Sequence record: PV191315.1
Strand: one strand, 5' to 3'
From: Escherichia phage vB_EcoM-P3322
Length of the DNA: 64,000 nt
Part shown: positions 4,965 through 49,435 of the stretch, piece after piece
Numbering within the stretch: position 1 is the stretch's first letter
Layout of the letters: every line of letters begins with the position of its first letter
Program-made: the position numbers and the translations under genes
Notes under the pieces: model-generated
Databases searched by the model: none
The model's input: the letters and a program-made list of their open reading frames with translations, nothing else
What the model was told of the DNA's origin: nothing

Positions 4965-5177
4965 TTACAGCCATTCTACTCTTAAGCAGTATTCCTCGAC
5001 ATGTTGTTTACGCTTGTTTTTGTCTATGTAAGTGTATTCAACAAATGTCCCAAGATAGTCCTTGTCTACATTGTGTGGGCTATTGATTGGACATTTAGTA
5101 CGACAAACCCGTTGCCACTGACGAAGAATTACGGCTTTGTTTTTAGGATCAAAGGGATGAGGGTAATGTACCTTCAT
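4965..5177 (-). CDS. hypothetical protein
   Basis: 70-aa ORF. Confidence 0.45.
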   Translation of the reverse strand: MKVHYPHPFDPKNKAVILRQWQRVCRTKCPINSPHNVDKDYLGTFVEYTYIDKNKRKQHVEEYCLRVEWL

Positions 5178-16988: not shown

Positions 16989-17357
16989 TTACTTTGTGCT
17001 GTTGTAAACGTTATCGCGTTCAACCATCACGGCAAGGCGGATCAGTTGATCAGTTGTATCGCGTAAATTGTCGGGCCATGTTTTACTGTTCCAGCTATCC
17101 AGGTTTGATTGTATATAGGTTTCAATGGCTTGATCCATATTATCAAACAAGTTTTCCTCCAGGCTCTCGGCTGTTTCACACTGGAAAGCATTAGCGACAC
17201 TATTAATCAATAAGCAAGCCAGTAAATCAGCATTACGCCAATTTTTACGGATAGTTTCATCTGTCAAATAACCAACGAGATTAACCTTTGCGCCAGTGGT
17301 TGACGTTGCGATCACTTCTTGTGCTTTTTCAAGTGCTTTAATTGCTGATTTGCTCAT
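16989..17357 (-). CDS. hypothetical protein
   Basis: 122-aa ORF. Confidence 0.5.
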   Translation of the reverse strand: MSKSAIKALEKAQEVIATSTTGAKVNLVGYLTDETIRKNWRNADLLACLLINSVANAFQCETAESLEENLFDNMDQAIETYIQSNLDSWNSKTWPDNLRDTTDQLIRLAVMVERDNVYNSTK

Positions 17358-17435
17358 CTTCTTTTCCTCTTTGTGGGCTTGCTGTATTGCTCGCCCTACG
17401 CAATAACTATAAGTTAACAGGAGAAATAAAGCAAG

Positions 17436-17669
17436 CTATTTTTTATAAAATTTTTCTGCTGTGATATTCTTCCCAGTAGGCTTAACCACTTGCAAGATCT
17501 TATCATGTGCCGAACGTCCAAAAGAGTAAGATCCGTACACGGTAAACCAATAATCCCCGTTCGGTTGAACGGTTACGGCGGCGTACGGTGTACCTCTTTC
17601 ATTATCCCCGATGAAGTGAGAAACATTACCGTTAACATTTGGTTTAGTGCTTTTAATTTGTTCGATCAT
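17436..17669 (-). CDS. hypothetical protein
   Basis: 77-aa ORF, AGGAG RBS, preceded by promoter-hairpin module. Confidence 0.5.
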   Translation of the reverse strand: MIEQIKSTKPNVNGNVSHFIGDNERGTPYAAVTVQPNGDYWFTVYGSYSFGRSAHDKILQVVKPTGKNITAEKFYKK

Positions 17670-17687
17670 GATATGACTCCTAAATCA

Positions 17688-17746
17688 GGCGGGAAACATT
17701 CCCGCCCTACGTGATAAATGATAATGTAAGCGTGATCCGGTGTCAA
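17688..17746 (-). promoter_or_regulatory. promoter + 5' GC-hairpin module
   Basis: rc: TTGACA (17741-17746), ~17-nt spacer, -10, then CACGTAGGGCGGGAATGTTTCCCGCC hairpin. Confidence 0.55.
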
Positions 17747-17880
17747 TAGGTAGGATTGTAAAGATTTGATAGTTTATCTCTTTGATGTTTTGTTGTTTGA
17801 TAGATGTTAGCTATCAATATATAGCGGGGTCGTCCGGTGATTATCTTCCCCTGCTCCCAGGTGCCGCCCGTTCAATAAGT

Positions 17881-17913
17881 ATAACAAAAAACAGGACAAA
17901 AACAAGCCCTGTT
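17881..17913 (-). terminator. terminator-like hairpin
   Basis: AACAGG...CCTGTT stem followed on minus strand by TTTTTGTTAT. Confidence 0.4.
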
Positions 17914-17921
17914 TATTTATC

Positions 17922-18056
17922 TTAAAACCAGTTGCCAACCGTTTCCAATAGGTCACTGACTACCAGGACAACATTAATCAGCACATATTCAACCAGGAAG
18001 GGAATAAGCGCCAGCGTTGCTACTACGATCCCCATTGTGATGATTACCTTTCTCAT
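17922..18056 (-). CDS. small hydrophobic peptide
   Basis: 44-aa ORF (MRKVIITMGIVVATLALIPFL...), single TM segment. Confidence 0.35.
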   Translation of the reverse strand: MRKVIITMGIVVATLALIPFLVEYVLINVVLVVSDLLETVGNWF

Positions 18057-18058
18057 GG

Positions 18059-18343
18059 TTAGCGGCTTACGTAAGCTTTACCGTTTACGGTCATCGGTAT
18101 GGCCTCAAGGTCTGGATCTTCCTTAAGGTCGCGTGCAAGCTCACCGCAGCGGATACCCTCGAATCCGTGGTATTCTGTCGCGCCGTCCTGGAAAGTTTTA
18201 GCGGCAAGGCATAGGCGATAATTAACACCGATCCGGTTTACCGCGTTGATATCGGTTAACGTGATGGATTCAGGCAAATCATTAGCCATTACAGGCGCGT
18301 TAATACCAACAACCAGGGCAACTACTGCGATCATCTTTTTCAT
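18059..18343 (-). CDS. secreted small protein
   Basis: Signal peptide MKKMIAVVALVVGINAPVMA. Confidence 0.55.
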   Translation of the reverse strand: MKKMIAVVALVVGINAPVMANDLPESITLTDINAVNRIGVNYRLCLAAKTFQDGATEYHGFEGIRCGELARDLKEDPDLEAIPMTVNGKAYVSR

Positions 18344-18398
18344 GTGTCTATCCTCTTCCTATTGCGTTTAATGGGGGCGTTACCGCCCTGCTTATGGT

Positions 18399-18635
18399 TT
18401 ATTGATTGATGTTATAATGAAAATTATTTTCTTCAATAGCTTTTAAAATAAAAGCCGTGATCGCTTTCGTGTCTACTTGTTCGAACGTATCAGAATAGCA
18501 CCAATAATAATCATCCCCTACTTTCGGCGGGTAAACCTGGACAAGGAGATCGCCACCTGGTTGATCTATAAGCTCAACATGCAAGCCGGATGATTCAGCG
18601 GTTTTAACGGCGGTTAATACTGTTGCAATACTCAT
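18399..18635 (-). CDS. hypothetical protein
   Basis: 78-aa ORF; GC hairpin 18651-18666 in 5' leader. Confidence 0.5.
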   Translation of the reverse strand: MSIATVLTAVKTAESSGLHVELIDQPGGDLLVQVYPPKVGDDYYWCYSDTFEQVDTKAITAFILKAIEENNFHYNINQ

Positions 18636-18679
18636 AATCTTTTCCTTTCTGATGTGGGGCGTTGCCGCCCCTTTGTTGA

Positions 18680-18979
18680 TTAGATCGCTGTTTCCAGTAG
18701 TTCGGCTAACGTCTTACCGCCTGATAGTTGGTCTAACGTTTGCTCTTCTGGCAAGAAATTAGCTGATATTAATCCGACTTGATTTCCTTTGTGCCAATTA
18801 GCTTGACGGATGATTCCATCCTTTAAAGATTTTACCGCCATTGTGCAACCGTCGCCAAATGATTCATTTTTATGATCCATCACTTCATAAGCGCCCAGCT
18901 TGCTACTGTTAGGCACCATTAACGCGAATACATCACCAACAACCAGTTTTTCTACGGTAATAATAGCGATAGTTTCCAT
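18680..18979 (-). CDS. hypothetical protein
   Basis: 99-aa ORF, GAGGA RBS, module upstream. Confidence 0.5.
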   Translation of the reverse strand: METIAIITVEKLVVGDVFALMVPNSSKLGAYEVMDHKNESFGDGCTMAVKSLKDGIIRQANWHKGNQVGLISANFLPEEQTLDQLSGGKTLAELLETAI

Positions 18980-19007
18980 TTTACTTTCCTCATTATCGGC
19001 GGCACCA

Positions 19008-19064
19008 TTGCCGCCCTACGTGGTAAATATTAGCACACTGGCGATCTGTGTCAATACTTTTTAT
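19008..19064 (-). promoter_or_regulatory. promoter + 5' GC-hairpin module
   Basis: rc: TTGACA, 17-nt spacer, TAATAT, CACGTAGGGCGGCAATGGTGCCGCC. Confidence 0.55.
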
Positions 19065-19447
19065 TCAATATAAATCAAATTATCTTCACCAATGTAAGCC
19101 GACACGTTCGGCATAAACTTAGCTGCATTGGTTAGGCGGTTGGCTGTGTTAGTGGTGTATATTTCAGGGCGATCCCAAAAGCCTACGCCGTGACCGTTAC
19201 GGGTAAAATGTAAATCATTCCCGATCTGGTTGGCTGTTGCGCCGTCGCTCATTGCCTCAGAGATAGCGGCAAGATTAGCATTAATAAAGGCTGTTACATC
19301 CTGGGCGATCCGTTGATCTGCGCTAGGAGAAAAATCATAATCGTCTAAGTTATCAATAAAATTACCTTCATGATCCCTTGCTGATTCAGCAAAAATAAAG
19401 GCTTCTTTATAGCCGTTGATGATTTCAATAATGATTTCTGTTTTCAT
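19061..19447 (-). CDS. hypothetical protein
   Basis: 128-aa ORF. Confidence 0.55.
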   Translation of the reverse strand: MKTEIIIEIINGYKEAFIFAESARDHEGNFIDNLDDYDFSPSADQRIAQDVTAFINANLAAISEAMSDGATANQIGNDLHFTRNGHGVGFWDRPEIYTTNTANRLTNAAKFMPNVSAYIGEDNLIYIE

Positions 19448-19668
19448 GCTGTACGCTCGACAATAATAATAGTTTGCGGGATCTCGTTTTCTACTACTAA
19501 CAAGGCTTTTTTCTGTGTGATAGATATTTTAACACGTTGTAAAGTAGCGGTAAAATCTTTCATTTCATTATGCGCGGATTTAGTACAATGCCAGATCTCA
19601 GGCTTACCAACTTGTAAGCCGCGTAAAAATTCCGTTTTGCCTGTTTTGTTCGTGATCATTTGTTTCAC
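19444..19668 (-). CDS. hypothetical protein
   Basis: 74-aa ORF. Confidence 0.5.
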   Translation of the reverse strand: MKQMITNKTGKTEFLRGLQVGKPEIWHCTKSAHNEMKDFTATLQRVKISITQKKALLVVENEIPQTIIIVERTA

Positions 19669-19669
19669 C

Positions 19670-19774
19670 TTAACCGATACCGTGGGAAGATAGGATCATA
19701 TTAGCCATAGTTGCAACTACTCCAACCGATAACGCCAGGCCAACCACTGCAACCGTGAAAATTTTCTCTAACAT
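19670..19774 (-). CDS. small hydrophobic peptide
   Basis: 34-aa ORF (MLEKIFTVAVVGLALSVGVV...) directly downstream of a module; track ORF extended through the promoter. Confidence 0.3.
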   Translation of the reverse strand: MLEKIFTVAVVGLALSVGVVATMANMILSSHGIG

Positions 19775-19793
19775 GATTCTACCCTCATTAATG

Positions 19794-19854
19794 GGCGTTG
19801 CACCATTGCCCCGCCCTACGTAATACACTTTACTAGATAACAAATTATTGTCAA
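19794..19854 (-). promoter_or_regulatory. promoter + 5' GC-hairpin module
   Basis: rc: TTGACA (19849-19854), -10, TACGTAGGGCGGGGCAATGGTGCAACGCCC. Confidence 0.5.
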
Positions 19855-19995
19855 GCTTTATTTTACTTCCCAAACGGAAAATTCGCTGCCTGTTGGGATC
19901 ATTTTTTTAATCTTGTTTGCTGCCGCTACCAGGTCAACGGCTTGTACTGTAATAATATAACCAATTGTCGAGGCTGTTGCGTTGAAAGTTTTCAT
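19816..19995 (-). CDS. hypothetical small protein
   Basis: 59-aa ORF (MKTFNATASTIGY...), AAGGG RBS; 3' end overlaps downstream module. Confidence 0.35.
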
Positions 19996-20014
19996 TATAT
20001 TGCCCTTTAATACA

Positions 20015-20037
20015 GGCGGGATTAATCCCGCCTTTTT
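20015..20037 (+). terminator. terminator-like hairpin (plus-strand orientation)
   Basis: GGCGGGATTAATCCCGCC followed by TTTTTG on plus strand, inside minus-strand block. Confidence 0.4.
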
Positions 20038-20039
20038 GA

Positions 20040-20210
20040 TTACTCTTCATTATCGCCGTTATAGTATTCAATGCCGTTTTCATCGGTTACGGTGATGTTA
20101 ACGCCACCGATAGCAACACGATCACGGGCAAACGTCATAGCTTCATTTAAATCTTCAGACCAAAAAATATTGTGACCTTTGCGCGATACATAAAACATAG
20201 TCGGGATCAT
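20040..20210 (-). CDS. hypothetical small protein
   Basis: Start at internal ATG (rc 20208-20210, MIPTMFYVSRKG); longer track ORF would run through the upstream module. Confidence 0.45.
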   Translation of the reverse strand: MIPTMFYVSRKGHNIFWSEDLNEAMTFARDRVAIGGVNITVTDENGIEYYNGDNEE

Positions 20211-20232
20211 GATTTGTTTCTCTTCTGTTATG

Positions 20233-20293
20233 AGCGGTGGACCATTCCGCCGCCCTATGTGGTAAACTTTACTACGTTGTTTGCCTGCTGTCA
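20233..20293 (-). promoter_or_regulatory. promoter + 5' GC-hairpin module
   Basis: rc: TTGACA (20288-20293), -10, CACATAGGGCGGCGGAATGGTCCACCGC. Confidence 0.5.
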
Positions 20294-20295
20294 AA

Positions 20296-20580
20296 CTATT
20301 TTTTAATGTTTTGCCCTACAAAATCGATCACTTCCTTAAGCTGTCTCTCTGTCATGATCGTACCTGGTAACTCTTCTTTAATTTCTTCCGGTAAATAGAT
20401 ATTACCGCGCCAGGTTAACAAACAACCGTTTTGATCTTCGCAGATAGAATAAGAAAACATCCACTCGCAATCATTTTCAAGCTCCCAAAAACACAAAAAG
20501 TCTTCTTTCCCTAAGTTTTCAACGGTTAAACATAATCCGCGACGTGCTGCATAATTAGTTAGGCTTTTTGTGATTTTCAT
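20296..20580 (-). CDS. hypothetical protein
   Basis: Start at internal ATG (rc 20578-20580, MKITKSLTNY). Confidence 0.5.
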   Translation of the reverse strand: MKITKSLTNYAARRGLCLTVENLGKEDFLCFWELENDCEWMFSYSICEDQNGCLLTWRGNIYLPEEIKEELPGTIMTERQLKEVIDFVGQNIKK

Positions 20581-20599
20581 GATTTTTCTCTCTTCTTGT

Positions 20600-20657
20600 G
20601 AGCGGCACCATTGCCGCCCTACAAGATACATATTACCAGATTAAGCGGACTTGTCAA
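20600..20657 (-). promoter_or_regulatory. promoter + 5' GC-hairpin module
   Basis: rc: TTGACA (20652-20657), TAATAT, TTGTAGGGCGGCAATGGTGCCGCTC. Confidence 0.55.
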
Positions 20658-20658
20658 A

Positions 20659-20769
20659 CTATTTTTTCTTTTTCTTTGCTTTCAATCGTCTAAGGTTACG
20701 GCTGGACTTATTGCGCAAGGCGCTTAGATCGTCGTACCCTTTCCATGCTTGCATATCTTTCGGATTCAT
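20659..20769 (-). CDS. small basic protein
   Basis: 36-aa ORF (MNPKDMQAWKGY...KAKKKKK) with AAGGGGA RBS. Confidence 0.35.
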   Translation of the reverse strand: MNPKDMQAWKGYDDLSALRNKSSRNLRRLKAKKKKK

Positions 20770-20778
20770 GTTATCCCC

Positions 20779-20940
20779 TTACTTGTTAGCCGGATCATAT
20801 ACCAGGACCGCGCCGCTTGCTTTCACGCTTTCCGCTTCATAGTTGCGCAGATCGTTTTCTGTAAGATTGAGCGCGATCACTTCCTCGATCTCAACGCCAG
20901 CGGCAAGGGCGATCTCTTTGATAATATCTGTTGTTTTCAT
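20779..20940 (-). CDS. hypothetical small protein
   Basis: Start at internal ATG (rc 20938-20940, MKTTDIIKEI). Confidence 0.4.
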   Translation of the reverse strand: MKTTDIIKEIALAAGVEIEEVIALNLTENDLRNYEAESVKASGAVLVYDPANK

Positions 20941-20950
20941 GGTGTGCACC

Positions 20951-21070
20951 TTATAAGATGATTGATAAGATAGTGACAACGAAAGCGATTATACTGATGG
21001 CAAATGTCATCTTTTTACCTTCGGATACTGCCGGATTTTCTACCGTGTATTCTACTGTGTACTTGCTCAT
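20951..21070 (-). CDS. small membrane peptide
   Basis: 39-aa ORF with C-terminal TM segment FAISIIAFVVTILSIIL. Confidence 0.35.
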   Translation of the reverse strand: MSKYTVEYTVENPAVSEGKKMTFAISIIAFVVTILSIIL

Positions 21071-21093
21071 CGTGTAATCCTCTCGTTTGCTTT

Positions 21094-21150
21094 GGGAACT
21101 ATTCCCGCCGCCCTATGAATTAAATATACACTATCTCAAAATGATTGCAA
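21094..21150 (-). promoter_or_regulatory. promoter + 5' GC-hairpin module (TTGCAA -35 variant)
   Basis: rc: TTGCAA, -10, TTCATAGGGCGGCGGGAATAGTTCCC. Confidence 0.5.
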
Positions 21151-21168
21151 GCCTTTTTCTAAATTATT

Positions 21169-21453
21169 TTATTCAGTAAACAAACCATCATTTACAACGG
21201 CGGCGATGATCTCCCGTGCCATTGATTCAGGGAAAGGGGCGCTATAGTCCTGGCTTGTCTCATCGGTATCGGTGATCCAATGATAAGCTAACGAGTAAAA
21301 GCCTTTACTAACTGTTTTCAGTGAGATGATGATCACTCGGTCAAGCTTATTGGTGAATGTTGCCGTTAATGTGTTACCCTCCTGCGTCATGTTGGACAAG
21401 TAAGCGAGATCATTAATCAGGGAAAACATTAGCACGGTGTTAGCTTTACTCAT
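21169..21453 (-). CDS. hypothetical protein
   Basis: Start at internal ATG (rc 21451-21453, MSKANTVLMF) with GAGGA RBS. Confidence 0.5.
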   Translation of the reverse strand: MSKANTVLMFSLINDLAYLSNMTQEGNTLTATFTNKLDRVIIISLKTVSKGFYSLAYHWITDTDETSQDYSAPFPESMAREIIAAVVNDGLFTE

Positions 21454-21471
21454 GATTGCATCCTCAAAGGG

Positions 21472-21530
21472 GCGCGGCACCATTGCCGCCCTACACGATA
21501 ACTATAACACAATGTAAAACAGGGTCAACC
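21472..21530 (-). promoter_or_regulatory. promoter + 5' GC-hairpin module
   Basis: rc: TTGACC, TATAGT, TATCGTGTAGGGCGGCAATGGTGCCGCGCC. Confidence 0.5.
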
Positions 21531-21731
21531 TTTATTTTTCCACGGTGTCAGCTTGTTAATCATTGGTGATAAATAGCGTTTACCAACGTAAAACAGTACG
21601 CCAACTGATGCAACGGCGGCGACCTCATGCATAGCCGACGGGAAACGGGTATCATAATAAGATCCAATAATAGCAATAGCGGCAACGGCTGCAACGTCGA
21701 TAATGATTTTCTCTTGTTTTGCGGTGATCAT
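21525..21731 (-). CDS. small membrane protein
   Basis: 68 aa with two hydrophobic segments. Confidence 0.5.
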   Translation of the reverse strand: MITAKQEKIIIDVAAVAAIAIIGSYYDTRFPSAMHEVAAVASVGVLFYVGKRYLSPMINKLTPWKNKG

Positions 21732-21752
21732 AGTATTTACCTTTTTGTATGG

Positions 21753-21810
21753 TGGGGAACTATTCCCCGCCTGATGTAATACAGTTTAACAGGTCCGGTT
21801 ATGGTGTCAA
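21753..21810 (-). promoter_or_regulatory. promoter + 5' GC-hairpin module
   Basis: rc: TTGACA (21805-21810), -10, ACATCAGGCGGGGAATAGTTCCCCACC. Confidence 0.5.
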
Positions 21811-21816
21811 CCACTT

Positions 21817-22002
21817 TTAAAGATATTTTATGCTAATGACGTTTTCAGGTTTTACCTTGTTATAATGTGCATCAACATAGATCAAACCATCGTCAGAAAA
21901 GCCCAGGATCACGCCCTGCGCGATAAAACCGTACTCGTCACGGTAACGCACGGCTATTTTTAATGTTGCGTTGTAGGCTGTTTTAAGCTCGTTTAAAGTC
22001 AT
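21817..22002 (-). CDS. hypothetical protein
   Basis: 61-aa ORF. Confidence 0.45.
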   Translation of the reverse strand: MTLNELKTAYNATLKIAVRYRDEYGFIAQGVILGFSDDGLIYVDAHYNKVKPENVISIKYL

Positions 22003-22021
22003 TTTTGTTTATCCTCTACAT

Positions 22022-22051
22022 GTAAAAAGAAAGGGCGCTTGATGCGCCCTT
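22022..22051 (-). terminator. intrinsic terminator
   Basis: AAGGGCGCATCAAGCGCCCTT hairpin followed on minus strand by TTCTTTTTAC. Confidence 0.6.
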
Positions 22052-22057
22052 GTTATG

Positions 22058-22204
22058 TTAATCCTCTAAATCCATCCAATTATATTTGTCACTCTTCCCG
22101 CGCTTTGTTTTATTACGCTTGTCACCTTTGCGGATCACTTCCTCGTTCCAGGCCTTGCGGATCTTGGAAGATTGAATTTTTTCTGCGCGATTAGATGTAT
22201 TCAT
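22058..22204 (-). CDS. small basic protein
   Basis: 48-aa ORF (MNTSNRAEKIQSSKIRK...) between module and terminator. Confidence 0.4.
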   Translation of the reverse strand: MNTSNRAEKIQSSKIRKAWNEEVIRKGDKRNKTKRGKSDKYNWMDLED

Positions 22205-22221
22205 TTTGTTTCCTCTTTATA

Positions 22222-22277
22222 TGAGCGGCACCATTGCCGCTATATTGTTAATTTAAACTGTTTTGTAAAATTGTCAA
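22222..22277 (-). promoter_or_regulatory. promoter + 5' GC-hairpin module
   Basis: rc: TTGACA (22272-22277), spacer, -10, TAGCGGCAATGGTGCCGCTC. Confidence 0.5.
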
Positions 22278-22283
22278 GGTTTA

Positions 22284-22637
22284 TCATTCATAAGAGCAAG
22301 CAAGGATCACGCCTGCAATATAAAGCCAATAATTTTCCCTTTCTCGTTGGATTTTATCATCGCTGCTATTCTCTTTAATGTATCCCCAGGATGTTAACAA
22401 GCGATCAATTTCCCAATATTCGAAAGCTATATTAATATCTGATGGCAAACCTTGTAACCATGATGCAAGTGCTTTAACAATACTATAATTAAAACGTGAT
22501 TGATTATCAGGGTACCAGTACTCGGAATTAAAACGGCGCATCAATTCCGCGATCTTCTCTTTTTCGGTTGTAATACCGTAATCATTAAAATCGATAGCGG
22601 CAAGGATGTACTCTTTAATTGCATTTTGTGCTTTCAT
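22284..22637 (-). CDS. hypothetical protein
   Basis: 117-aa ORF. Confidence 0.5.
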   Translation of the reverse strand: MKAQNAIKEYILAAIDFNDYGITTEKEKIAELMRRFNSEYWYPDNQSRFNYSIVKALASWLQGLPSDINIAFEYWEIDRLLTSWGYIKENSSDDKIQRERENYWLYIAGVILACSYE

Positions 22638-22654
22638 GGTCTTTCTCTCTTTTT

Positions 22655-22712
22655 AGCGGGAACTATTCCCGCCCTACGTGTAACAGTTTACTGAAAATTA
22701 AATCCGTGTCAA
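22655..22712 (-). promoter_or_regulatory. promoter + 5' GC-hairpin module
   Basis: rc: TTGACA (22707-22712), -10, CACGTAGGGCGGGAATAGTTCCCGCT. Confidence 0.55.
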
Positions 22713-22715
22713 GCT

Positions 22716-22937
22716 TTATTTTGTTACTACCATTTGGTACCCTGTTTCAATGTTAGTAAATACTGTTATCCCGTCCTGGCGTTCACTCATTAGCATACAA
22801 GGCGCTAACATCCTTTCTACTGCCTTGCACTCATTGTAAACGGCGGTTATGTCTCCTGCGGCCTTGTCTTCTGTGGTGAATGTATCGTTTATGTAAACTT
22901 GACTAGCGACAACGGCGACAATAGCGAAAGTGATCAT
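22716..22937 (-). CDS. hypothetical protein with hydrophobic N-terminus
   Basis: 73 aa; MITFAIVAVVASQVY signal/anchor-like start. Confidence 0.5.
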   Translation of the reverse strand: MITFAIVAVVASQVYINDTFTTEDKAAGDITAVYNECKAVERMLAPCMLMSERQDGITVFTNIETGYQMVVTK

Positions 22938-23010
22938 GATATTTTTCTCTTTATGTGTTTCTATTAGTTGATATTACAGCAATTCGCAGATTATTTTTTA
23001 GCAATTCGTG

Positions 23011-23229
23011 CTATTTACTCATAACAGTATCGAAAACAAATTTTTCTTTGTTGTCAAAGCTCACGTATCCGATTCTACCACGCAAGCCGCAAGTAGTGCC
23101 GTATTCGTAACCGTCAAGACCTTTAACCTTCCAATCCACGCCCATTAAAACCGCATTATATTTCTGACCAACTACAAACGCGCCACCAGTTGATTCAATG
23201 CAAACAACTTTAATTTTACGGATTGCCAT
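23011..23229 (-). CDS. hypothetical protein
   Basis: 72-aa ORF. Confidence 0.5.
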   Translation of the reverse strand: MAIRKIKVVCIESTGGAFVVGQKYNAVLMGVDWKVKGLDGYEYGTTCGLRGRIGYVSFDNKEKFVFDTVMSK

Positions 23230-23265
23230 TTTCTTTCTCTCTTTCTGGTGATTGGTTTCTCTTCT

Positions 23266-23305
23266 CTATAGCGCCCATTGTAAGGCGCTATAACGAAAAG
23301 TCAAC
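23266..23305 (-). promoter_or_regulatory. promoter with palindrome spanning the -10
   Basis: rc: GTTGAC -35, 16-nt spacer, TACAAT; 9-bp arms TATAGCGCC...GGCGCTATA (23266-23291) flank the -10. Confidence 0.45.
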
Positions 23306-23307
23306 GA

Positions 23308-23475
23308 TTATTTTTTAAGGCTTAAAGTACCTAACTTGTCAGCATGACGCAGACCAGGGAATATCCATTTGCCTGACTCATCTTTCACCGGGGCTTTAAG
23401 CGTAGCGCCCAGGTTGGCGGCGTTAACTTTACGTGCAACGTTGCGAGCGGCTTCACGGGTAGCGAAAGTGATCAT
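23308..23475 (-). CDS. hypothetical small protein
   Basis: 55-aa ORF (MITFATREAARNVARKV...). Confidence 0.4.
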   Translation of the reverse strand: MITFATREAARNVARKVNAANLGATLKAPVKDESGKWIFPGLRHADKLGTLSLKK

Positions 23476-23499
23476 GGTGTTTTCCTCTTCTCTTTGTTA

Positions 23500-23561
23500 G
23501 GCGGTGGACCATTCCGCCGCCTTGATGTAATACAGTTTACTTTATTTTATTAAGATTGCAA
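23500..23561 (-). promoter_or_regulatory. promoter + 5' GC-hairpin module (TTGCAA variant)
   Basis: rc: TTGCAA, -10, CATCAAGGCGGCGGAATGGTCCACCGCC. Confidence 0.5.
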
Positions 23562-23567
23562 GCGGTT

Positions 23568-23783
23568 TTATGAAATAATTGTCAAAGTAAAATCATAAGA
23601 CTGATTTAATTTATATTGTACTTTATTGCCGTAGTAGTCACCTTTACGTAAAGATCCGCGAATACCTATCACATCCTTTACATCTTTAAGATTTTTTACG
23701 CCTGTAATGTCTTTATTGAAATACTCGTCATCTGAAAATAAAACTTGACTTGCATTTTTTAACAGTGTACGGATATTAGCCAT
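23568..23783 (-). CDS. hypothetical protein
   Basis: 71-aa ORF. Confidence 0.45.
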   Translation of the reverse strand: MANIRTLLKNASQVLFSDDEYFNKDITGVKNLKDVKDVIGIRGSLRKGDYYGNKVQYKLNQSYDFTLTIIS

Positions 23784-23806
23784 CGTGATAATCTCTCTTC
23801 TGTTGT

Positions 23807-23864
23807 GAGCGGCACTATTGCCGCCCTACGTAATACAGTTTACTCTTTTTCTTTCCGGTGTCAA
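23807..23864 (-). promoter_or_regulatory. promoter + 5' GC-hairpin module
   Basis: rc: TTGACA (23859-23864), -10, TACGTAGGGCGGCAATAGTGCCGCTC. Confidence 0.55.
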
Positions 23865-23873
23865 CAATCTTTT

Positions 23874-24101
23874 TCAGATTAATTCATCCAGGCATAACAG
23901 GCGATCAACGTTGAGATCGGTTAGGCTGATGGTTGGCACCTGGTAGGATTCGATGTACTCGACGCTTGCATATTCCCCAAAATTAGCAACAGCCCACTTA
24001 TTCAAGATCTCACATACATCATTAATCTTTTTGTTTGTTACAACTGCAATGACCTGGGAAGTGCCAACGGTGCCGGATACGCGAACAATATTGATAGCCA
24101 T
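23874..24101 (-). CDS. hypothetical protein
   Basis: 75-aa ORF. Confidence 0.45.
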   Translation of the reverse strand: MAINIVRVSGTVGTSQVIAVVTNKKINDVCEILNKWAVANFGEYASVEYIESYQVPTISLTDLNVDRLLCLDELI

Positions 24102-24122
24102 AATCTTTAATCTCTCTGTTTT

Positions 24123-24182
24123 GGCGGGAAACCACTTCCCGCCCTATGTGATACATCTTACACTAATTTTAAACGTTGTCAA
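24123..24182 (-). promoter_or_regulatory. promoter + 5' GC-hairpin module
   Basis: rc: TTGACA (24177-24182), TAAGAT-type -10, CACATAGGGCGGGAAGTGGTTTCCCGCC. Confidence 0.55.
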
Positions 24183-24191
24183 CTGTTTTTA

Positions 24192-24431
24192 TTACATTCC
24201 AACCATCGCGGCACGGATCGCAGTAGTGCTATATTTGAAACCGTCTGGCGTTTTATCTTGTCCAGTTTGTTCCAGAAAAAGCATCATATCCCGCGCCGCA
24301 TCATTACGATTAGCATTAGCGTTAATAAAATCTTGGGCCAACCGGTATAACGATTCATCGTTATTAATCCAAAGGCTTACATTCCAATGAGTTTTGTTTT
24401 TGTGACCGTTGTACATTTTAGATTTAGCCAT
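24192..24431 (-). CDS. hypothetical protein
   Basis: 79-aa ORF. Confidence 0.45.
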   Translation of the reverse strand: MAKSKMYNGHKNKTHWNVSLWINNDESLYRLAQDFINANANRNDAARDMMLFLEQTGQDKTPDGFKYSTTAIRAAMVGM

Positions 24432-24465
24432 GATTTTTCTCTCTTTTTCAGTGAGGCGGGAAGTG

Positions 24466-24514
24466 TTCCCGCTCTCTATGTAATACAGTTTACTCTTTTT
24501 ATTCGTGCTGTCAA
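24466..24514 (-). promoter_or_regulatory. promoter + 5' GC-hairpin module
   Basis: rc: TTGACA (24509-24514), -10, CATAGAGAGCGGGAACACTTCCCGCC. Confidence 0.5.
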
Positions 24515-24520
24515 TGCTTT

Positions 24521-24886
24521 TTATAAATCTTTTTTACGTTTTACATCGCTCGCATGACTGTATACAGTGATCCCATTGTCACGGCAAAAACGGGAAAGAT
24601 ACGCGCCGCGTGAAAACTCTTTACCTTCCATATTAATAACCTTGCTAAATTCTTCTAGGGCAACGGTATCAAAATGATCCCCATAGCCATATTGAAACGG
24701 AACGTTAACTACTTCGATCAGTTTACCGCCGATCTCAACATCAACCATCAAAGAGAAATAAGTATTACCATAAGACTTTTGAAACCAGCGACGGGCGCTA
24801 ATATGTACCGCTTCAATGCTGGATAGTTCAATTTTAGCAGTGTTAGCCAGGGTAGCATAAGCAGAAACATTGATATTTTTAGCCAT
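24521..24886 (-). CDS. hypothetical protein
   Basis: 121-aa ORF; degenerate module upstream (24890-24975). Confidence 0.5.
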   Translation of the reverse strand: MAKNINVSAYATLANTAKIELSSIEAVHISARRWFQKSYGNTYFSLMVDVEIGGKLIEVVNVPFQYGYGDHFDTVALEEFSKVINMEGKEFSRGAYLSRFCRDNGITVYSHASDVKRKKDL

Positions 24887-24981
24887 AGTCTTTAATCTCT
24901 TTTGATTAGTTAGGAGTATTCCCGATAAAAGTTATTATGCTTATACTATCACTCATTGTCAATAGTATAAGACTAAAACTT

Positions 24982-25161
24982 TTAACGATAATCGTTATAG
25001 GCTTTATTGACCTGGCGAATGTAACATTCGAAAGCAAGATCAATGTATTCGTATTCACGCACATAATCACCATAGGTCACTACATACATTTTTAAAGTTT
25101 CCTCATAAGCCAGGAGGATCGAATCTAAACCTATAATCTCAGTTTTTGCAATGATAGCCAT
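24982..25161 (-). CDS. hypothetical small protein
   Basis: 59-aa ORF (MAIIAKTEIIGLD...). Confidence 0.4.
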   Translation of the reverse strand: MAIIAKTEIIGLDSILLAYEETLKMYVVTYGDYVREYEYIDLAFECYIRQVNKAYNDYR

Positions 25162-25181
25162 GATGTTAACCTTTTATTGTT

Positions 25182-25238
25182 GGCGGCACCATTGCCGCCC
25201 TACGTGATAAACTATACCAGAATTTTAAACAGTGTCAA
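25182..25238 (-). promoter_or_regulatory. promoter + 5' GC-hairpin module
   Basis: rc: TTGACA (25233-25238), 16-nt spacer, TATAGT, CACGTAGGGCGGCAATGGTGCCGCC. Confidence 0.6.
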
Positions 25239-25244
25239 CCGTTT

Positions 25245-25607
25245 TTATTCGTAAATTTTACCGCTTTCGGCCCATACCATAACGCGGCGCATACTATCCC
25301 AAGTGTTTTGATCCAAGTTTAAGCCGTGCAACTCTTCGGTACTTCCCAGACCAGGTACCGCTTTGTTGTAAGTTGCATATAAGCGCCCTTGATACTCATA
25401 CGCCAGAGTAAGATCCGTTTGAATCATCTTTTTAAGCATAGCATTAAGCATCATATTAGCGGCATGTTGATCACGTTTTAGCGGTAACATATCAATAAGG
25501 GCGCGATAAGCTGAAACATGAATATCAACCGTTTCACGTGGTAAATTTTTCATATCATCACGGAAAGATACCAGATTAAACATGATAGTATTGATTTGCT
25601 TGCTCAT
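25245..25607 (-). CDS. hypothetical protein
   Basis: 120-aa ORF. Confidence 0.5.
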   Translation of the reverse strand: MSKQINTIMFNLVSFRDDMKNLPRETVDIHVSAYRALIDMLPLKRDQHAANMMLNAMLKKMIQTDLTLAYEYQGRLYATYNKAVPGLGSTEELHGLNLDQNTWDSMRRVMVWAESGKIYE

Positions 25608-25628
25608 TGTGTTACCCTTTTTTGTTTT

Positions 25629-25689
25629 GGCGGGGAAGTATTCCGCCGCCCTATGTGATACATCTTACCAGATTAAAAAACGTTGTCAA
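25629..25689 (-). promoter_or_regulatory. promoter + 5' GC-hairpin module
   Basis: rc: TTGACA (25684-25689), 16-nt spacer, TAAGAT (25662-25667), CACATAGGGCGGCGGAATACTTCCCCGCC. Confidence 0.6.
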
Positions 25690-25698
25690 GAATATTTT

Positions 25699-25794
25699 TT
25701 AGAAAATAATAACCGCTACTACAACCCAAAATGGAACGGCTAGAATGATAGCGTTAATCGTTCCAACCGTCAAGCTATTTTCTTTATTAATCAT
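25699..25794 (-). CDS. small membrane peptide
   Basis: 31-aa ORF (MINKENSLTVGTINAIILAVPFWVVVAVIIF). Confidence 0.3.
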   Translation of the reverse strand: MINKENSLTVGTINAIILAVPFWVVVAVIIF

Positions 25795-25822
25795 TGTAAG
25801 CCTCTTGCATAATTTCACTATT

Positions 25823-25880
25823 AGCGGCACCATTGCCGCCCTACGTGGTAAATATTATGCCAGTGGCGGCGATATGTCAA
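25823..25880 (-). promoter_or_regulatory. promoter + 5' GC-hairpin module
   Basis: rc: TTGACA (25875-25880), 17-nt spacer, TAATAT, CACGTAGGGCGGCAATGGTGCCGC. Confidence 0.6.
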
Positions 25881-26443
25881 AGACTATTTTCAAAGTTTTC
25901 TAGTGCGATCCTTTTTTCTTCCTCTGTTGGCTGATAATCAGGAAAAGCATCAACACACAACAACGGCGGGATCTCTTCGTACTCTTCCTCTTCCGTTGTC
26001 TCCTCGTCTTCCTCCTGGGCTATGGCTGCAATTTTGGCTAATTTTCTTTCAGCTTGAATCAATTTACCATCAAGTACGTTTTTTGCCATGTTGTAAGCGG
26101 TCCAGGTGATGCGCTTACTTTCCAATGCTTCATCAAGCGCCGCTATCTTGCTGGGGTATTCATCCAGGACACGAAAAGCCGGATCAATTTTGTACAAAGG
26201 ATTATCTTTCGCGCCGTCGCTCGCATCTTCCGCACTGGATAAATCAGCGTTACCATTTGCCAGCCAGCCAGGGCGCACATAACGCGCTTTTACGTTGCCG
26301 TTACTACGTGCTAATCTGTTACCTATTTGCTCACCGCTATATCCCGTGGATTCATCGATAAGATGATCGGGAATGATGCGCGGATCATCTGCTTCATGTT
26401 TTACCCAAGACTGGATCACATATTCGCGGCCCATATTAACCAC
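25877..26443 (-). CDS. hypothetical protein with acidic C-terminal stretch
   Basis: 188 aa; EEDEETTEEEEYEE acidic segment. Confidence 0.55.
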   Translation of the reverse strand: MVNMGREYVIQSWVKHEADDPRIIPDHLIDESTGYSGEQIGNRLARSNGNVKARYVRPGWLANGNADLSSAEDASDGAKDNPLYKIDPAFRVLDEYPSKIAALDEALESKRITWTAYNMAKNVLDGKLIQAERKLAKIAAIAQEEDEETTEEEEYEEIPPLLCVDAFPDYQPTEEEKRIALENFENSL

Positions 26444-26693
26444 CTTTTTTCAACAATTGGCATACTTTAAAAAGACTTGCTGAATCCTTGCAAGGGTAGA
26501 AAGATGTACGATAATCACGTACGCCAACCTTGCGGATCTCGATGTTTTCGCATGTTGTTTGATCAAAGATATTTATTTCATCACGCCCCCTTATATAAAC
26601 ATAGTGGGGATGTATTAACGCATATTTTGCTAATCTGTAAAAAGCGTTATCTTTGAACGCGATCACGTGACCTTTTAATTTGATGTAAAACAT
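26436..26693 (-). CDS. hypothetical protein
   Basis: 85-aa ORF. Confidence 0.45.
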   Translation of the reverse strand: MFYIKLKGHVIAFKDNAFYRLAKYALIHPHYVYIRGRDEINIFDQTTCENIEIRKVGVRDYRTSFYPCKDSASLFKVCQLLKKGG

Positions 26694-26710
26694 TCTACCA
26701 CCTTACAAAT

Positions 26711-26766
26711 AGCGGGAACTATTCCCGCTTTATGTAACATATTAACAAATTATTCGTTAATGTCAA
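26711..26766 (-). promoter_or_regulatory. promoter + 5' GC-hairpin module
   Basis: rc: TTGACA (26761-26766), -10, CATAAAGCGGGAATAGTTCCCGCT. Confidence 0.55.
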
Positions 26767-26769
26767 GCC

Positions 26770-27042
26770 TTAAAGCAAAAACGCTACATCTTGCGCTTTT
26801 AGTGTAGTATCAACCATTTTCGGGCTTTTATAATCAACAAAGCGCGCGGTTTTTTCAATAGCGAAACCGAGATAATCTTGCTTGTTGAAATTACATTCTT
26901 TCTTAAATGTTTCCCGTGCAATGGCAATCGCTGCGTCCAGGGATAAACGCCCGTCAATATTGATATTAGCGAAAGATCCGCCACCGCTCATAGGTTTACC
27001 AGTGGTGCCAGCTACGATCATTGTTGCGCTATATGATGCCAT
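26770..27042 (-). CDS. hypothetical protein
   Basis: 90-aa ORF. Confidence 0.5.
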   Translation of the reverse strand: MASYSATMIVAGTTGKPMSGGGSFANINIDGRLSLDAAIAIARETFKKECNFNKQDYLGFAIEKTARFVDYKSPKMVDTTLKAQDVAFLL

Positions 27043-27067
27043 GATGATAATCTCTCTTCTGTTACGA

Positions 27068-27126
27068 GCGGGAAACCACTTCCCGCCCTATGTGATACAT
27101 CTTATCAGGTTGTTGTTTGTTGTCAA
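27068..27126 (-). promoter_or_regulatory. promoter + 5' GC-hairpin module
   Basis: rc: TTGACA (27121-27126), TAAGAT-type -10, CACATAGGGCGGGAAGTGGTTTCCCGC. Confidence 0.55.
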
Positions 27127-27132
27127 TACTTT

Positions 27133-27330
27133 TTATTCTATCCCTGCAATTTGATTAACGCGCTTGCATTTTGTAGCGTGCTGGTCTTCTGTAATGACTC
27201 CCATTTCTAACAGGGAATCAATGAAAGATAAAACCGTTTCATGATCATCCTGGGGATGACTGAACTCAGTAAAACCGTTTACTATTACGTTGATTTGTCC
27301 AGCTTTCGCCACAATATGCAATGTTGCCAT
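27133..27330 (-). CDS. hypothetical protein
   Basis: 65-aa ORF; unusually long GC-rich 5' leader. Confidence 0.45.
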   Translation of the reverse strand: MATLHIVAKAGQINVIVNGFTEFSHPQDDHETVLSFIDSLLEMGVITEDQHATKCKRVNQIAGIE

Positions 27331-27603
27331 GATCTTAACTCCAGGTGATGAATGATGTTTTTTGTTGGTGGACGGTGGATTATGGAGATCCTCACCTTTG
27401 CCCGTCCTGCATTGCGCCCTCCTGTTGTTTATTGTCGTTGTGCCGCGCCCCCCTCGACAAGATGAATACTACGCTACCAGGCGAGGAACGTCAACCACTT
27501 TTTCAATCTTTTTTATTTTCTTTTTGCTTGCTATATATAAAGGAAAGGGCTATCATCTTTCTACCGCGCCAACCAGGGCGCACAACAAAGAAAGGGCGAC
27601 ACC

Positions 27604-49134: not shown

Positions 49135-49356
49135 ATGGGTGTTTTTGCAGGTATTGTTGCAGTGGTAAGCTTTTTTGTTATTGCTTTTATGCTTAGTTTG
49201 ATTCCAGCTTGGTTACTGTTGCTGGCTTACAACTATGTTGCTGAAGTTATGGGTCATGCAGATATCACTGTCCCAGTAACCTTCTGGACCGTGGTTTGTG
49301 TTTCGTTTATTCTGGCTGTATTACGAGGAATCTTTTCCTCTCATTCAACAAAATAA
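49135..49356 (+). CDS. small membrane protein
   Basis: 73 aa, two TM helices. Confidence 0.5.
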   Translation: MGVFAGIVAVVSFFVIAFMLSLIPAWLLLLAYNYVAEVMGHADITVPVTFWTVVCVSFILAVLRGIFSSHSTK

Positions 49357-49359
49357 GTG

Positions 49360-49418
49360 TTGACATAGTTCTTAAAAAGAGTAAGATGTATCACATGAAG
49401 CGGGGAATAGTTCCCCGC
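49360..49418 (+). promoter_or_regulatory. promoter + 5' GC-hairpin module upstream of terC
   Basis: TTGACA (49360-49365), 16-nt spacer, TAAGAT (49382-49387), GTATCACAT, hairpin GCGGGGAATAGTTCCCCGC; same class as the minus-strand modules. Confidence 0.6.
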
Positions 49419-49435
49419 AAAGAGAGGAGAAAAGA

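Follow-up and report, generated by a model that had tools for sequence, protein, structure and literature searches.

Small genes in one region of the coliphage genome analysed here are preceded, one after another, by the same short module of promoter and hairpin, and the locus raises the question of what this repeated unit does for the genes behind it. The region lies in a 64,000-nucleotide stretch of Escherichia phage vB_EcoM-P3322 (sequence record PV191315.1; the whole stretch is called the window), and an earlier note on this DNA had described the modules and suggested roles for their hairpins. On balance, we consider it probable that the modules are self-contained expression cassettes, each made of a sigma-70 promoter and a leader hairpin, and that they are also patches for recombination. 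Each module of ~90-100 bp would usually drive a single small accessory gene, and now and then a short operon. The modules appear to work like the promoter-early stem-loops (PeSLs) of T4-like phages, as a variant outside the original family. The phage itself is not T4-like but belongs to Phapecoctavirus in the Stephanstirmvirinae, the phAPEC8 group of coliphages. Positions 17,000-27,500 of the window align over their full length with Escherichia phage Mt1B1_P17 at 97% identity, and many other Phapecoctavirus genomes match this interval at 85-99%.

A repeated unit from promoter to ribosome-binding site

Direct reading of the window gives 20 co-oriented minus-strand modules within 17,358-27,140, a region of ~10 kb, and one further module on the plus strand at 49,346-49,435. 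The array is real, far above chance and somewhat wider than first described: the earlier note had counted at least 19 copies between 17688 and 27126, and this span does hold 19 modules, with m17435 just outside it and the additional plus-strand copy at 49360 (modules are named m followed by the start of their -35 hexamer; 49360 is the -35 of the plus-strand copy). The sequence TAGGGCGG, which is part of the conserved box described below, occurs 14 times in the window, always on the minus strand, against 0.36 occurrences expected from shuffles, and a loose scan for promoter plus hairpin returns 25 sites, compared with 3.4 on average after shuffling. All 21 window copies are recovered by a covariance model derived from 12 copies. 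In Mt1B1_P17 the same model finds copies in the orthologous 2.2-12.3 kb and one isolated site at 35.9 kb, with no significant match elsewhere in the first 150,000 of its 151,202 bases.

The modules are built in a constant order, with an A-rich tract, TTGACA, 16-17 nt, TAnnnT, the box, a GC hairpin, a purine-rich ribosome site and ATG. The A-rich upstream tract (AAAAA) usually holds the TAA or TGA stop codon of the preceding gene. The -35 hexamer is TTGACA in 16 of the 21 copies and TTGCAA, TTGACC or TTGCTT in the other five, and eight copies have the TG of an extended -10. The box, (G/T)TAT(C/T)AC(A/G)TAGGGCGG, merges into a hairpin with a GC-rich stem of 7-10 bp and a loop of 3-6 nt, and the ribosome-binding site lies before the ATG within an A/purine-rich stretch of the type CACAACAGAAGAGAGA. 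Distances are confined: 8-12 nt (median 11) from the -10 to the first paired base, 15-28 nt (median 18.5) from the end of the hairpin to the start codon, and 45-58 nt from the -10 to the ATG. The layout read by the earlier note (TTGACA or TTGCAA, 16-17-nt spacer, -10, box, inverted repeat) is thus present in the modules, and the conserved unit extends beyond promoter plus hairpin to a whole cassette of ~90-100 bp that reaches through the ribosome-binding region. Its proposal of strong promoters of the host type also agrees with the sequence: that the elements are promoters is well supported, and their consensus -35, 16-17 nt spacer, frequent TG and A-rich tract look like those of strong sigma-70-type promoters.

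Individual modules are supported by direct reading, the covariance model, leader folding and measurement of their geometry. On the minus strand, m27126 (27043-27140) has TTGACA-16-TAAGAT, an UP tract with stop codon, the box CACATAGGGCGG, the hairpin GGGCGGGAA/TTCCCGCTC, a Shine-Dalgarno (SD) sequence and an ATG at 27042. It is followed by m26766 (26694-26780), with the box variant CATAAAGCGG, the hairpin GCGGGAA-TAG-TTCCCGC and a T-richer tail, and then by m25880 (25795-25894), m25689 (25608-25703), m25238 (25162-25252; hairpin GGCGGCA-ATGG-TGCCGCC), m24514 (24432-24528), m24182 (24102-24196), which contains a recurrent homology breakpoint at 24190/24192, and m23864 (23784-23878). Farther along are m23561 (23476-23575), with the -35 TTGCAA and a C.A mismatch in the hairpin, m22712 (22638-22726), m22277 (22205-22291), with a shortened box, m21810 (21732-21824), m21528 (21454-21542), with a weak fold z-score, and m21150 (21071-21164), with TTGCAA and a degraded 3' arm. 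The series ends with m20657 (20581-20671), in which CTTGT/ACAAG extends the stem, m20294 (20211-20308), m19854 (19775-19868), m19054 (18980-19068), m17746 (17670-17760) and m17435 (17358-17449), which has the weak -35 TTGCTT. The isolated full module on the plus strand (49346-49435) is far from the array and stands upstream of the orthologue of a Mt1B1_P17 gene annotated as a TerC-like integral membrane protein.

Conservation, covariation and strand of the hairpin

The promoter spacer provides an internal neutral control for conservation. Among the 21 window copies it is unconserved, with a pairwise identity of 0.32 and 0.31 bit per position, compared with pairwise identities of 0.86 in the -35 and 0.69 in the -10; the 18 nt that follow the -10 reach 0.57, or about 1 bit per position. 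Because the spacer is essentially random while box and stem are conserved, the latter are kept by selection or ongoing conversion, and chance or recent duplication as the origin of the array is ruled out. Most leaders (18 of 20) fold with z-scores of -2.3 to -5.2, the hairpins have stabilities of -11 to -16 kcal/mol, and, with the R of RTAGGG as the first transcribed base, the stem would start at nucleotide 4-5.

To follow the stem across relatives, we used 132 copies collected by model search, 91 of them distinct. In the alignment of these 91, pairing is kept in 95.2% of cells, and both partners have changed at four of the eight pairs; at one inner pair, 40 sequences have C-G and 20 have G-C. 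None of 500 shuffles reaches any of five pairing or covariation measures, and sliding the partners against each other destroys both pairing and covariation. Clearly different stems all pair, among them GGCGGCA/TGCCGCC, GCGGGAA/TTCCCGC and GGGGCG/CGCCCC as well as GGCGGGAAA/TTTCCCGCC, GGCCGGGAA/TTCCCGGTC and GGCGGTGG/CCACCGCC. The strand also leaves a trace, with G.U at one pair in 40 of the 91 copies and the sense strand giving the more stable fold in 70 of the 91 (means of -13.4 kcal/mol for sense and -11.8 kcal/mol for antisense). The hairpin is therefore a conserved structure, probably one of the sense RNA. A dimeric DNA operator is disfavoured by this covariation together with the spacing between the GCGG and CCGC half-sites, which varies from 7 to 14 nt. 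An extended lower stem, R...CAY, between the start-site nucleotides and the 3' flank was rejected, its composition being 10 G/C, 3 A/U, 6 A.C and 2 G.U and its covariation unconvincing.

Intrinsic (Rho-independent) terminators likewise have short GC-rich hairpins in intergenic DNA, but the module hairpins differ from them in having no U-tract on the sense strand and a position fixed to the downstream promoter. A promoter and terminator scan found no module hairpin that is terminator-like on the sense strand, where it did call two other hairpins of the region (22051-22031 and 17914-17889), and T is scarce behind the module stems, with a median of one T against five A in the next 8 nt. The earlier note had held that the hairpins lack a U-tract and are not terminators, and both the scan and the A-rich tails bear this out as far as canonical terminators are concerned. 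Its view of the repeat as a 5'-leader structure is supported by a position downstream of the likely start, the missing U-tract, the covariation and the better sense-strand fold; the alignment and covariance check that it had suggested gave a box and stem conserved beyond the -35 and -10, with a covarying stem. Overall, its host-type promoters and leader hairpin are supported by the sequence, and the roles it offered for the hairpin (stabilisation, RNase processing, binding of a regulator) remain proposals.

Modules at the junctions of shuffled cassettes

When 16.5-28 kb was compared by BLAST with 12 related loci, the homology blocks had 56 distinct internal ends. Modules cover 18% of the region and contain 27 of these 56 ends (binomial p = 3e-7). 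Cassette order in Justusliebigvirus alia is permuted relative to the window, and where the three rearranged blocks meet they share 30 and 45 nt that lie exactly within modules, as crossovers within repeats would give. Mt1B1_P17 carries an extra module-plus-gene cassette at window position 20779, and its m27126 orthologue has identical promoter and ribosome-site flanks around a different hairpin patch of ~25 nt. The swapped patch resembles the m20294 hairpin, which indicates patch conversion between modules. Near-identity over ~60-100 bp between cassettes would turn the modules into patches for homologous recombination, through which related phages may gain, lose, reorder and patch-convert cassettes, in line with what has been proposed for PeSLs.

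Two further differences between relatives were seen. Schickermooser (locus L005, 8398-8486) and several relatives have an 88-bp insertion relative to window 24191, with a 26-codon mini open reading frame (ORF), placed between the stop codon of a gene and the next module. In another set of orthologues the stems GGCGGTGG/CCACCGCC are identical and the 6-nt loop is reverse-complemented, AATAGC against GCTATT (locus L035 at 12598 against L021 at 626 and L019 at 4337); a loop inverted between identical stems implies a DNA-level hairpin or a template-switch event.

The genes behind the modules are annotated in the relatives inspected almost exclusively as hypothetical proteins, with no promoters marked in the region. 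Its 34 proteins are mutually unrelated (mean column identity 8%), and their PHROG matches are each to a different single-member family with no named function. Pfam gave two clear matches among the 34 (small ORFs, window 16992-27330), to DUF7249 and to the T7 gene 1.1 family (PF08200). This is the gene content expected of a hyperplastic accessory-gene region. A tRNA scan found none, and the modules match none of the Rfam 15 covariance models, either at the gathering cut-off or even at E <= 1.

Relation to PeSLs and other known elements

PeSLs were described in the T4-like phages RB49/phi1, PST/T4 and nt-1/KVP40 (Arbiol et al, 2010, PMC2839356; Comeau et al, 2014, PMC4122927), where experiments showed promoter strength, stem-loop attenuation and mini-circle formation (PMC2839356; PMC4122927). 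Like the modules, they are intergenic units of ~100 bp with a stop codon in an A/T-rich tract, a near-consensus sigma-70 promoter, a GC-rich stem-loop inside the element, and an SD and start codon at the 3' end. Both are concentrated where small genes of unknown function (ORFans) make up a hyperplastic region, the modules being confined to one 10-kb region, and both lie at junctions of indels, replacements and permutations between close relatives. The differences begin with the host genomes, since PeSLs belong to T4-like myoviruses and the modules to a member of the Stephanstirmvirinae. In RB49/phi1 the PeSL stem-loop is mostly between or over the hexamers, and in PST it is upstream of the promoter (PMC2839356), whereas the stem-loop of the modules is fixed downstream of the -10 and of the likely start and would therefore be transcribed into the leader; a rare RB49 subclass, ‘downstream of the -10’, is nearest to this placement. 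The modules further add a conserved unpaired box and have no U-tract. Modules of this kind were not described for phAPEC8, phi92 or rV5-type phages in the literature searched; an earlier mention in the phi92 and phAPEC8 genome papers, which lie outside that literature, is possible.

We also compared the modules with 5'-terminal stabiliser stem-loops, such as those of the ompA and papA leaders and the phage T7 gene 10 leader. In the protective cases, few or no nucleotides may precede the stem. The likeness to ompA-type stabilisers consists of a GC hairpin predicted very near the mRNA 5' end, an unstructured A-rich linker and an SD; a possible difference is the 3-5 unpaired nt expected at the 5' end of the modules if transcription starts 6-8 nt after the -10. 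The sequence CAC-ATAGGG with a hairpin ending in GGTTTCCC (for example at 24140-24165) resembles the end of the T7 phi10 promoter with the gene 10 leader hairpin (CACTATAGGGAGACCACAACGGTTTCCC). This resemblance is probably convergent, and the annotations of relatives contain no single-subunit RNA polymerase.

Phage T5 offers a third comparison. Its promoter classes differ mainly in the discriminator, and an RNA polymerase-binding protein of T5 affects that contact (PMC7472727). Class-specific discriminators share with the modules a conserved segment between the -10 and +1 of a phage sigma-70 promoter, but the T5 early signature, ATATT, is unrelated to the module box (PMC7472727).

The box in other phage families

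The 47-nt module core matches 559 phage records, and a 22-nt core, TTATCNCGTAGGGCGGCAATG, occurs outside the Stephanstirmvirinae in many T5-like phages. The T5 copy, at 5020-5041 of AY692264 (within the stretch 4970-5060), is a single copy in the first-step-transfer, pre-early DNA and directly follows a promoter-like site, TTGCGC-17-TATTAT. The same core stands right after a -10-like hexamer in Certrevirus (PBES 02, P7_Pc), Vequintavirus slur12 and the jumbo phage Asteriusvirus G17 (loci L037, L039 and L036 at 1470-1560; L038 at 690-775). The 3' arm of the hairpin is degraded in the T5, Certrevirus and G17 copies and intact in that of slur12, which also has a variant module with the stem GGGCA/TGCCC. 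T5p008, the gene downstream of the T5 copy, has no homologue in the window or in the relatives compared, so that only the regulatory piece is shared. The genes downstream of the box in T5, Certrevirus, Asteriusvirus and Vequintavirus are unrelated.

Individual matches between families are short, with E-values of 0.02-0.9 per record; homology of the box across families is likely but not certain, and the argument for it is the shared context. A host-derived motif is ruled out, as the box has no match in 5,426 E. coli genomes. A pattern scan of IMG/VR returned 27 stretches, about half of them phAPEC8-like and the rest, by a rough estimate, about what chance would give for a 17-base pattern, and was not used as evidence.

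Proposed function of the hairpin and the box

From this anatomy we infer a start site, an early timing, a stabilising effect and a mechanism of recombination. Host sigma-70 RNA polymerase would read the promoter, probably early in infection, and transcription would most likely start at the purine of (C)AC-R-TAGGG, or 2 nt earlier, because Y-R steps lie 6 and 8 nt after the -10. The mRNA would then consist of 3-5 unpaired nt, a GC hairpin of 7-10 bp, an A-rich single-stranded linker and the ribosome-binding site, and selection would keep the hairpin as a sense-strand RNA structure. The hairpin would most likely leave the 5' end poorly suited to attack by 5'-end-dependent decay (RppH/RNase E), and it would give every cassette a uniform, context-independent leader. 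In transcripts reading through from an upstream cassette, the same hairpin would lie at or near the 3' end of the upstream cistron and may form a barrier or attenuator. This second role would not exclude the first, and is supported by the hairpins in the region that have no promoter.

A near-terminal GC hairpin is a classical brake on 5'-end-dependent decay. Stabilisation is in our view the most likely single function of the hairpin, a preference that we hold tentatively and with a little less than even confidence. Several points weigh against it and against the cassette model as a whole. The RppH of E. coli behaves like that of B. subtilis. The B. subtilis enzyme needs only 2-3 unpaired nucleotides (PMC3997798), and RNase E is scarcely slowed by a simple stem-loop when the 5' end before it is free (PMC11194081). 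With 3-5 unpaired nt predicted at the 5' end, protection by the hairpin is thus doubtful and its margin thin. Five hairpins in the region have no promoter, so the hairpins also have a function for which a place at the 5' end is unnecessary. Any function that a generic hairpin could fulfil leaves the conservation of the unpaired box, even across phage families, unexplained; the box may have been optimised as a start site and first transcribed stretch, or it may mark the class for a factor that recognises it. The covariation figures are generous, because the alignment in which pairs were counted had been fitted to the structure of the model, and relatedness among the copies inflates their p-values. 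The null for the breakpoints is likewise generous, as junctions are expected in intergenic DNA and intergenic DNA here is mostly module. Finally, our literature search found no transcriptome paper for this phage group, and the 5' ends are those suggested by the DNA sequence.

The foremost alternative to stabilisation, possible but in our estimate doubtful, is that the hairpin has its main effect on RNA arriving from the upstream cassette, as a terminator or attenuator or as a 3'-end barrier to exonucleases, and that its place in the leader is a by-product of compaction. Such a role was proposed for PeSL stem-loops, which reportedly lowered downstream lacZ expression about as strongly as the rrnB T1 terminator (PMC2839356). 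It would fit with the near-absence of other terminators between cassettes in our scan, with the GGGCG-type sequence that the five promoter-less intergenic hairpins have in common with the modules, and with the m26766 orthologue, whose tail is the T-richest and which is annotated as an ARNold terminator in phage Schickermooser. The A-rich tails and the absence of any sense-strand terminator call do not fit with it, and the fixed distance of the hairpin from the -10 would be needless in a terminator of the upstream gene. A role in upstream transcripts is also compatible with a role in the leader, and the two are not mutually exclusive.

We consider it unlikely that the box, with or without the hairpin, is foremost a class signature for a specific factor, either a phage protein that binds RNA polymerase or nucleic acid and times the shut-off or upkeep of the promoters, or a host protein exploited by several coliphage families. 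The contrast between an unpaired box at about 1 bit per position and an unconserved spacer is what such a signature would leave, as is the recurrence of the core directly after -10-like hexamers in T5 pre-early DNA, Certrevirus, Vequintavirus and Asteriusvirus; the T5 discriminator classes and their RNA polymerase-binding protein provide a precedent (PMC7472727). However, no candidate factor was identified, stem covariation and variable half-site spacing speak against a dimeric operator, the short cross-family matches could reflect transfer of promoter fragments and not shared function, and a box with no match in E. coli genomes does not mimic a host site. Slightly less probable again is the fuller version, in which the box (ATCAC-R-TAGGGCGG) would be a cis signal for a dedicated factor, perhaps a phage RNA polymerase-binding protein or a host RNA-binding or processing protein, that defines a temporal or stability class of transcripts and has spread by exchange of promoter cassettes, with the Stephanstirmvirinae, the Vequintavirinae, T5-like pre-early DNA and Asteriusvirus as its acquirers.

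Very improbable is a model of DNA-level mobile or recombinogenic hairpins that are moved by a dedicated enzyme, with promoter activity secondary, such as a repetitive extragenic palindromic (REP)-like ‘GTAG + palindrome’ with a RAYT/HUH-type nuclease or another site-specific system: the R-TAG motif immediately before the GC palindrome, which we take to resemble REP elements, and the inverted loop, a DNA-level event, would suit it, but all copies are co-oriented with their gene and have a full promoter and ribosome site, their G.U pairs and sense-strand preference point to RNA, and the 30-45 nt overlaps at junctions are those of homologous recombination. Site-specific recombination was left open by the PeSL authors (PMC4122927), but the annotations of relatives list no transposase or HUH protein, although no search was aimed at such a nuclease.

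Other elements of the region

Two minus-strand promoters in the region depart from the module type. The site at 24934-24962 is a promoter only, TTGACA-17-CATAAT, with neither box nor hairpin. The promoter at 23277-23304, TTGACT-16-TACAAT, has no box, and an inverted repeat, TATAGCGCC...GGGCGCTATA, spans its -10; this resembles the RB49/phi1 PeSL arrangement (PMC2839356) and not the local module type.

Hairpins apart from the modules, all on the minus strand, include a promoter-less intergenic one with a T-tract at 22031-22051, which the scan gave as truly terminator-like, and a promoter-less intergenic GC hairpin at 20014-20033 with a T-tract on the opposite strand only. Two more promoter-less intergenic hairpins, GGGGCG-GCAA-CGCCCC at 18656-18671 and GGGCG-GTAA-CGCCC at 18374-18389, have loops of the GNRA type (GCAA and GTAA, respectively). 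The hairpins at 18374-18389, 18656-18671 and 20014-20033 are preceded by A-tracts and are terminator-like only for the plus strand. A terminator-like hairpin with a T-tract at 17889-17914 is followed by ~170 nt of conserved non-coding DNA. This ORF-less stretch (17750-17890, minus strand), between the terminator-like hairpin and m17746, includes GGGCGGCACC, is kept in Phapecoctavirus and Justusliebigvirus and partly in Vequintavirus slur12, and has a fold z-score of only -1.5; a small RNA and the remains of a module are both conceivable.

Outside the window, Mt1B1_P17 has at 112062 (L003 12062-12140) an unrelated promoter, TTGACT-16-TATAAT, and then, at the same distance as in the modules, a different GC hairpin, GGGAGGA...TCCTCCC. 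The site lies just upstream of the ribonucleotide reductase gene cluster, and has the layout of the modules with non-homologous sequence.

Implications

Beyond the earlier note, the analysis adds the parallel with PeSLs, the breakpoints of cassette shuffling, the extension of the unit to the ribosome-binding region and the box in unrelated coliphage families. As landmarks, the modules would help to annotate ~20 transcription units in each genome of >250 sequenced phages; in the records inspected, only hypothetical proteins are listed there. Their fixed layout of promoter, box, hairpin and SD is a compact and portable natural expression unit that phage engineers could reuse, and the box shared between families gives a concrete target for asking whether a common factor controls immediate-early transcripts. 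If the proposed reading is correct, the principle of promoter–stem-loop cassettes would not be peculiar to T4-like phages, and would be a general means by which large virulent coliphages hold and exchange accessory early genes, likely those for host takeover or anti-defence.

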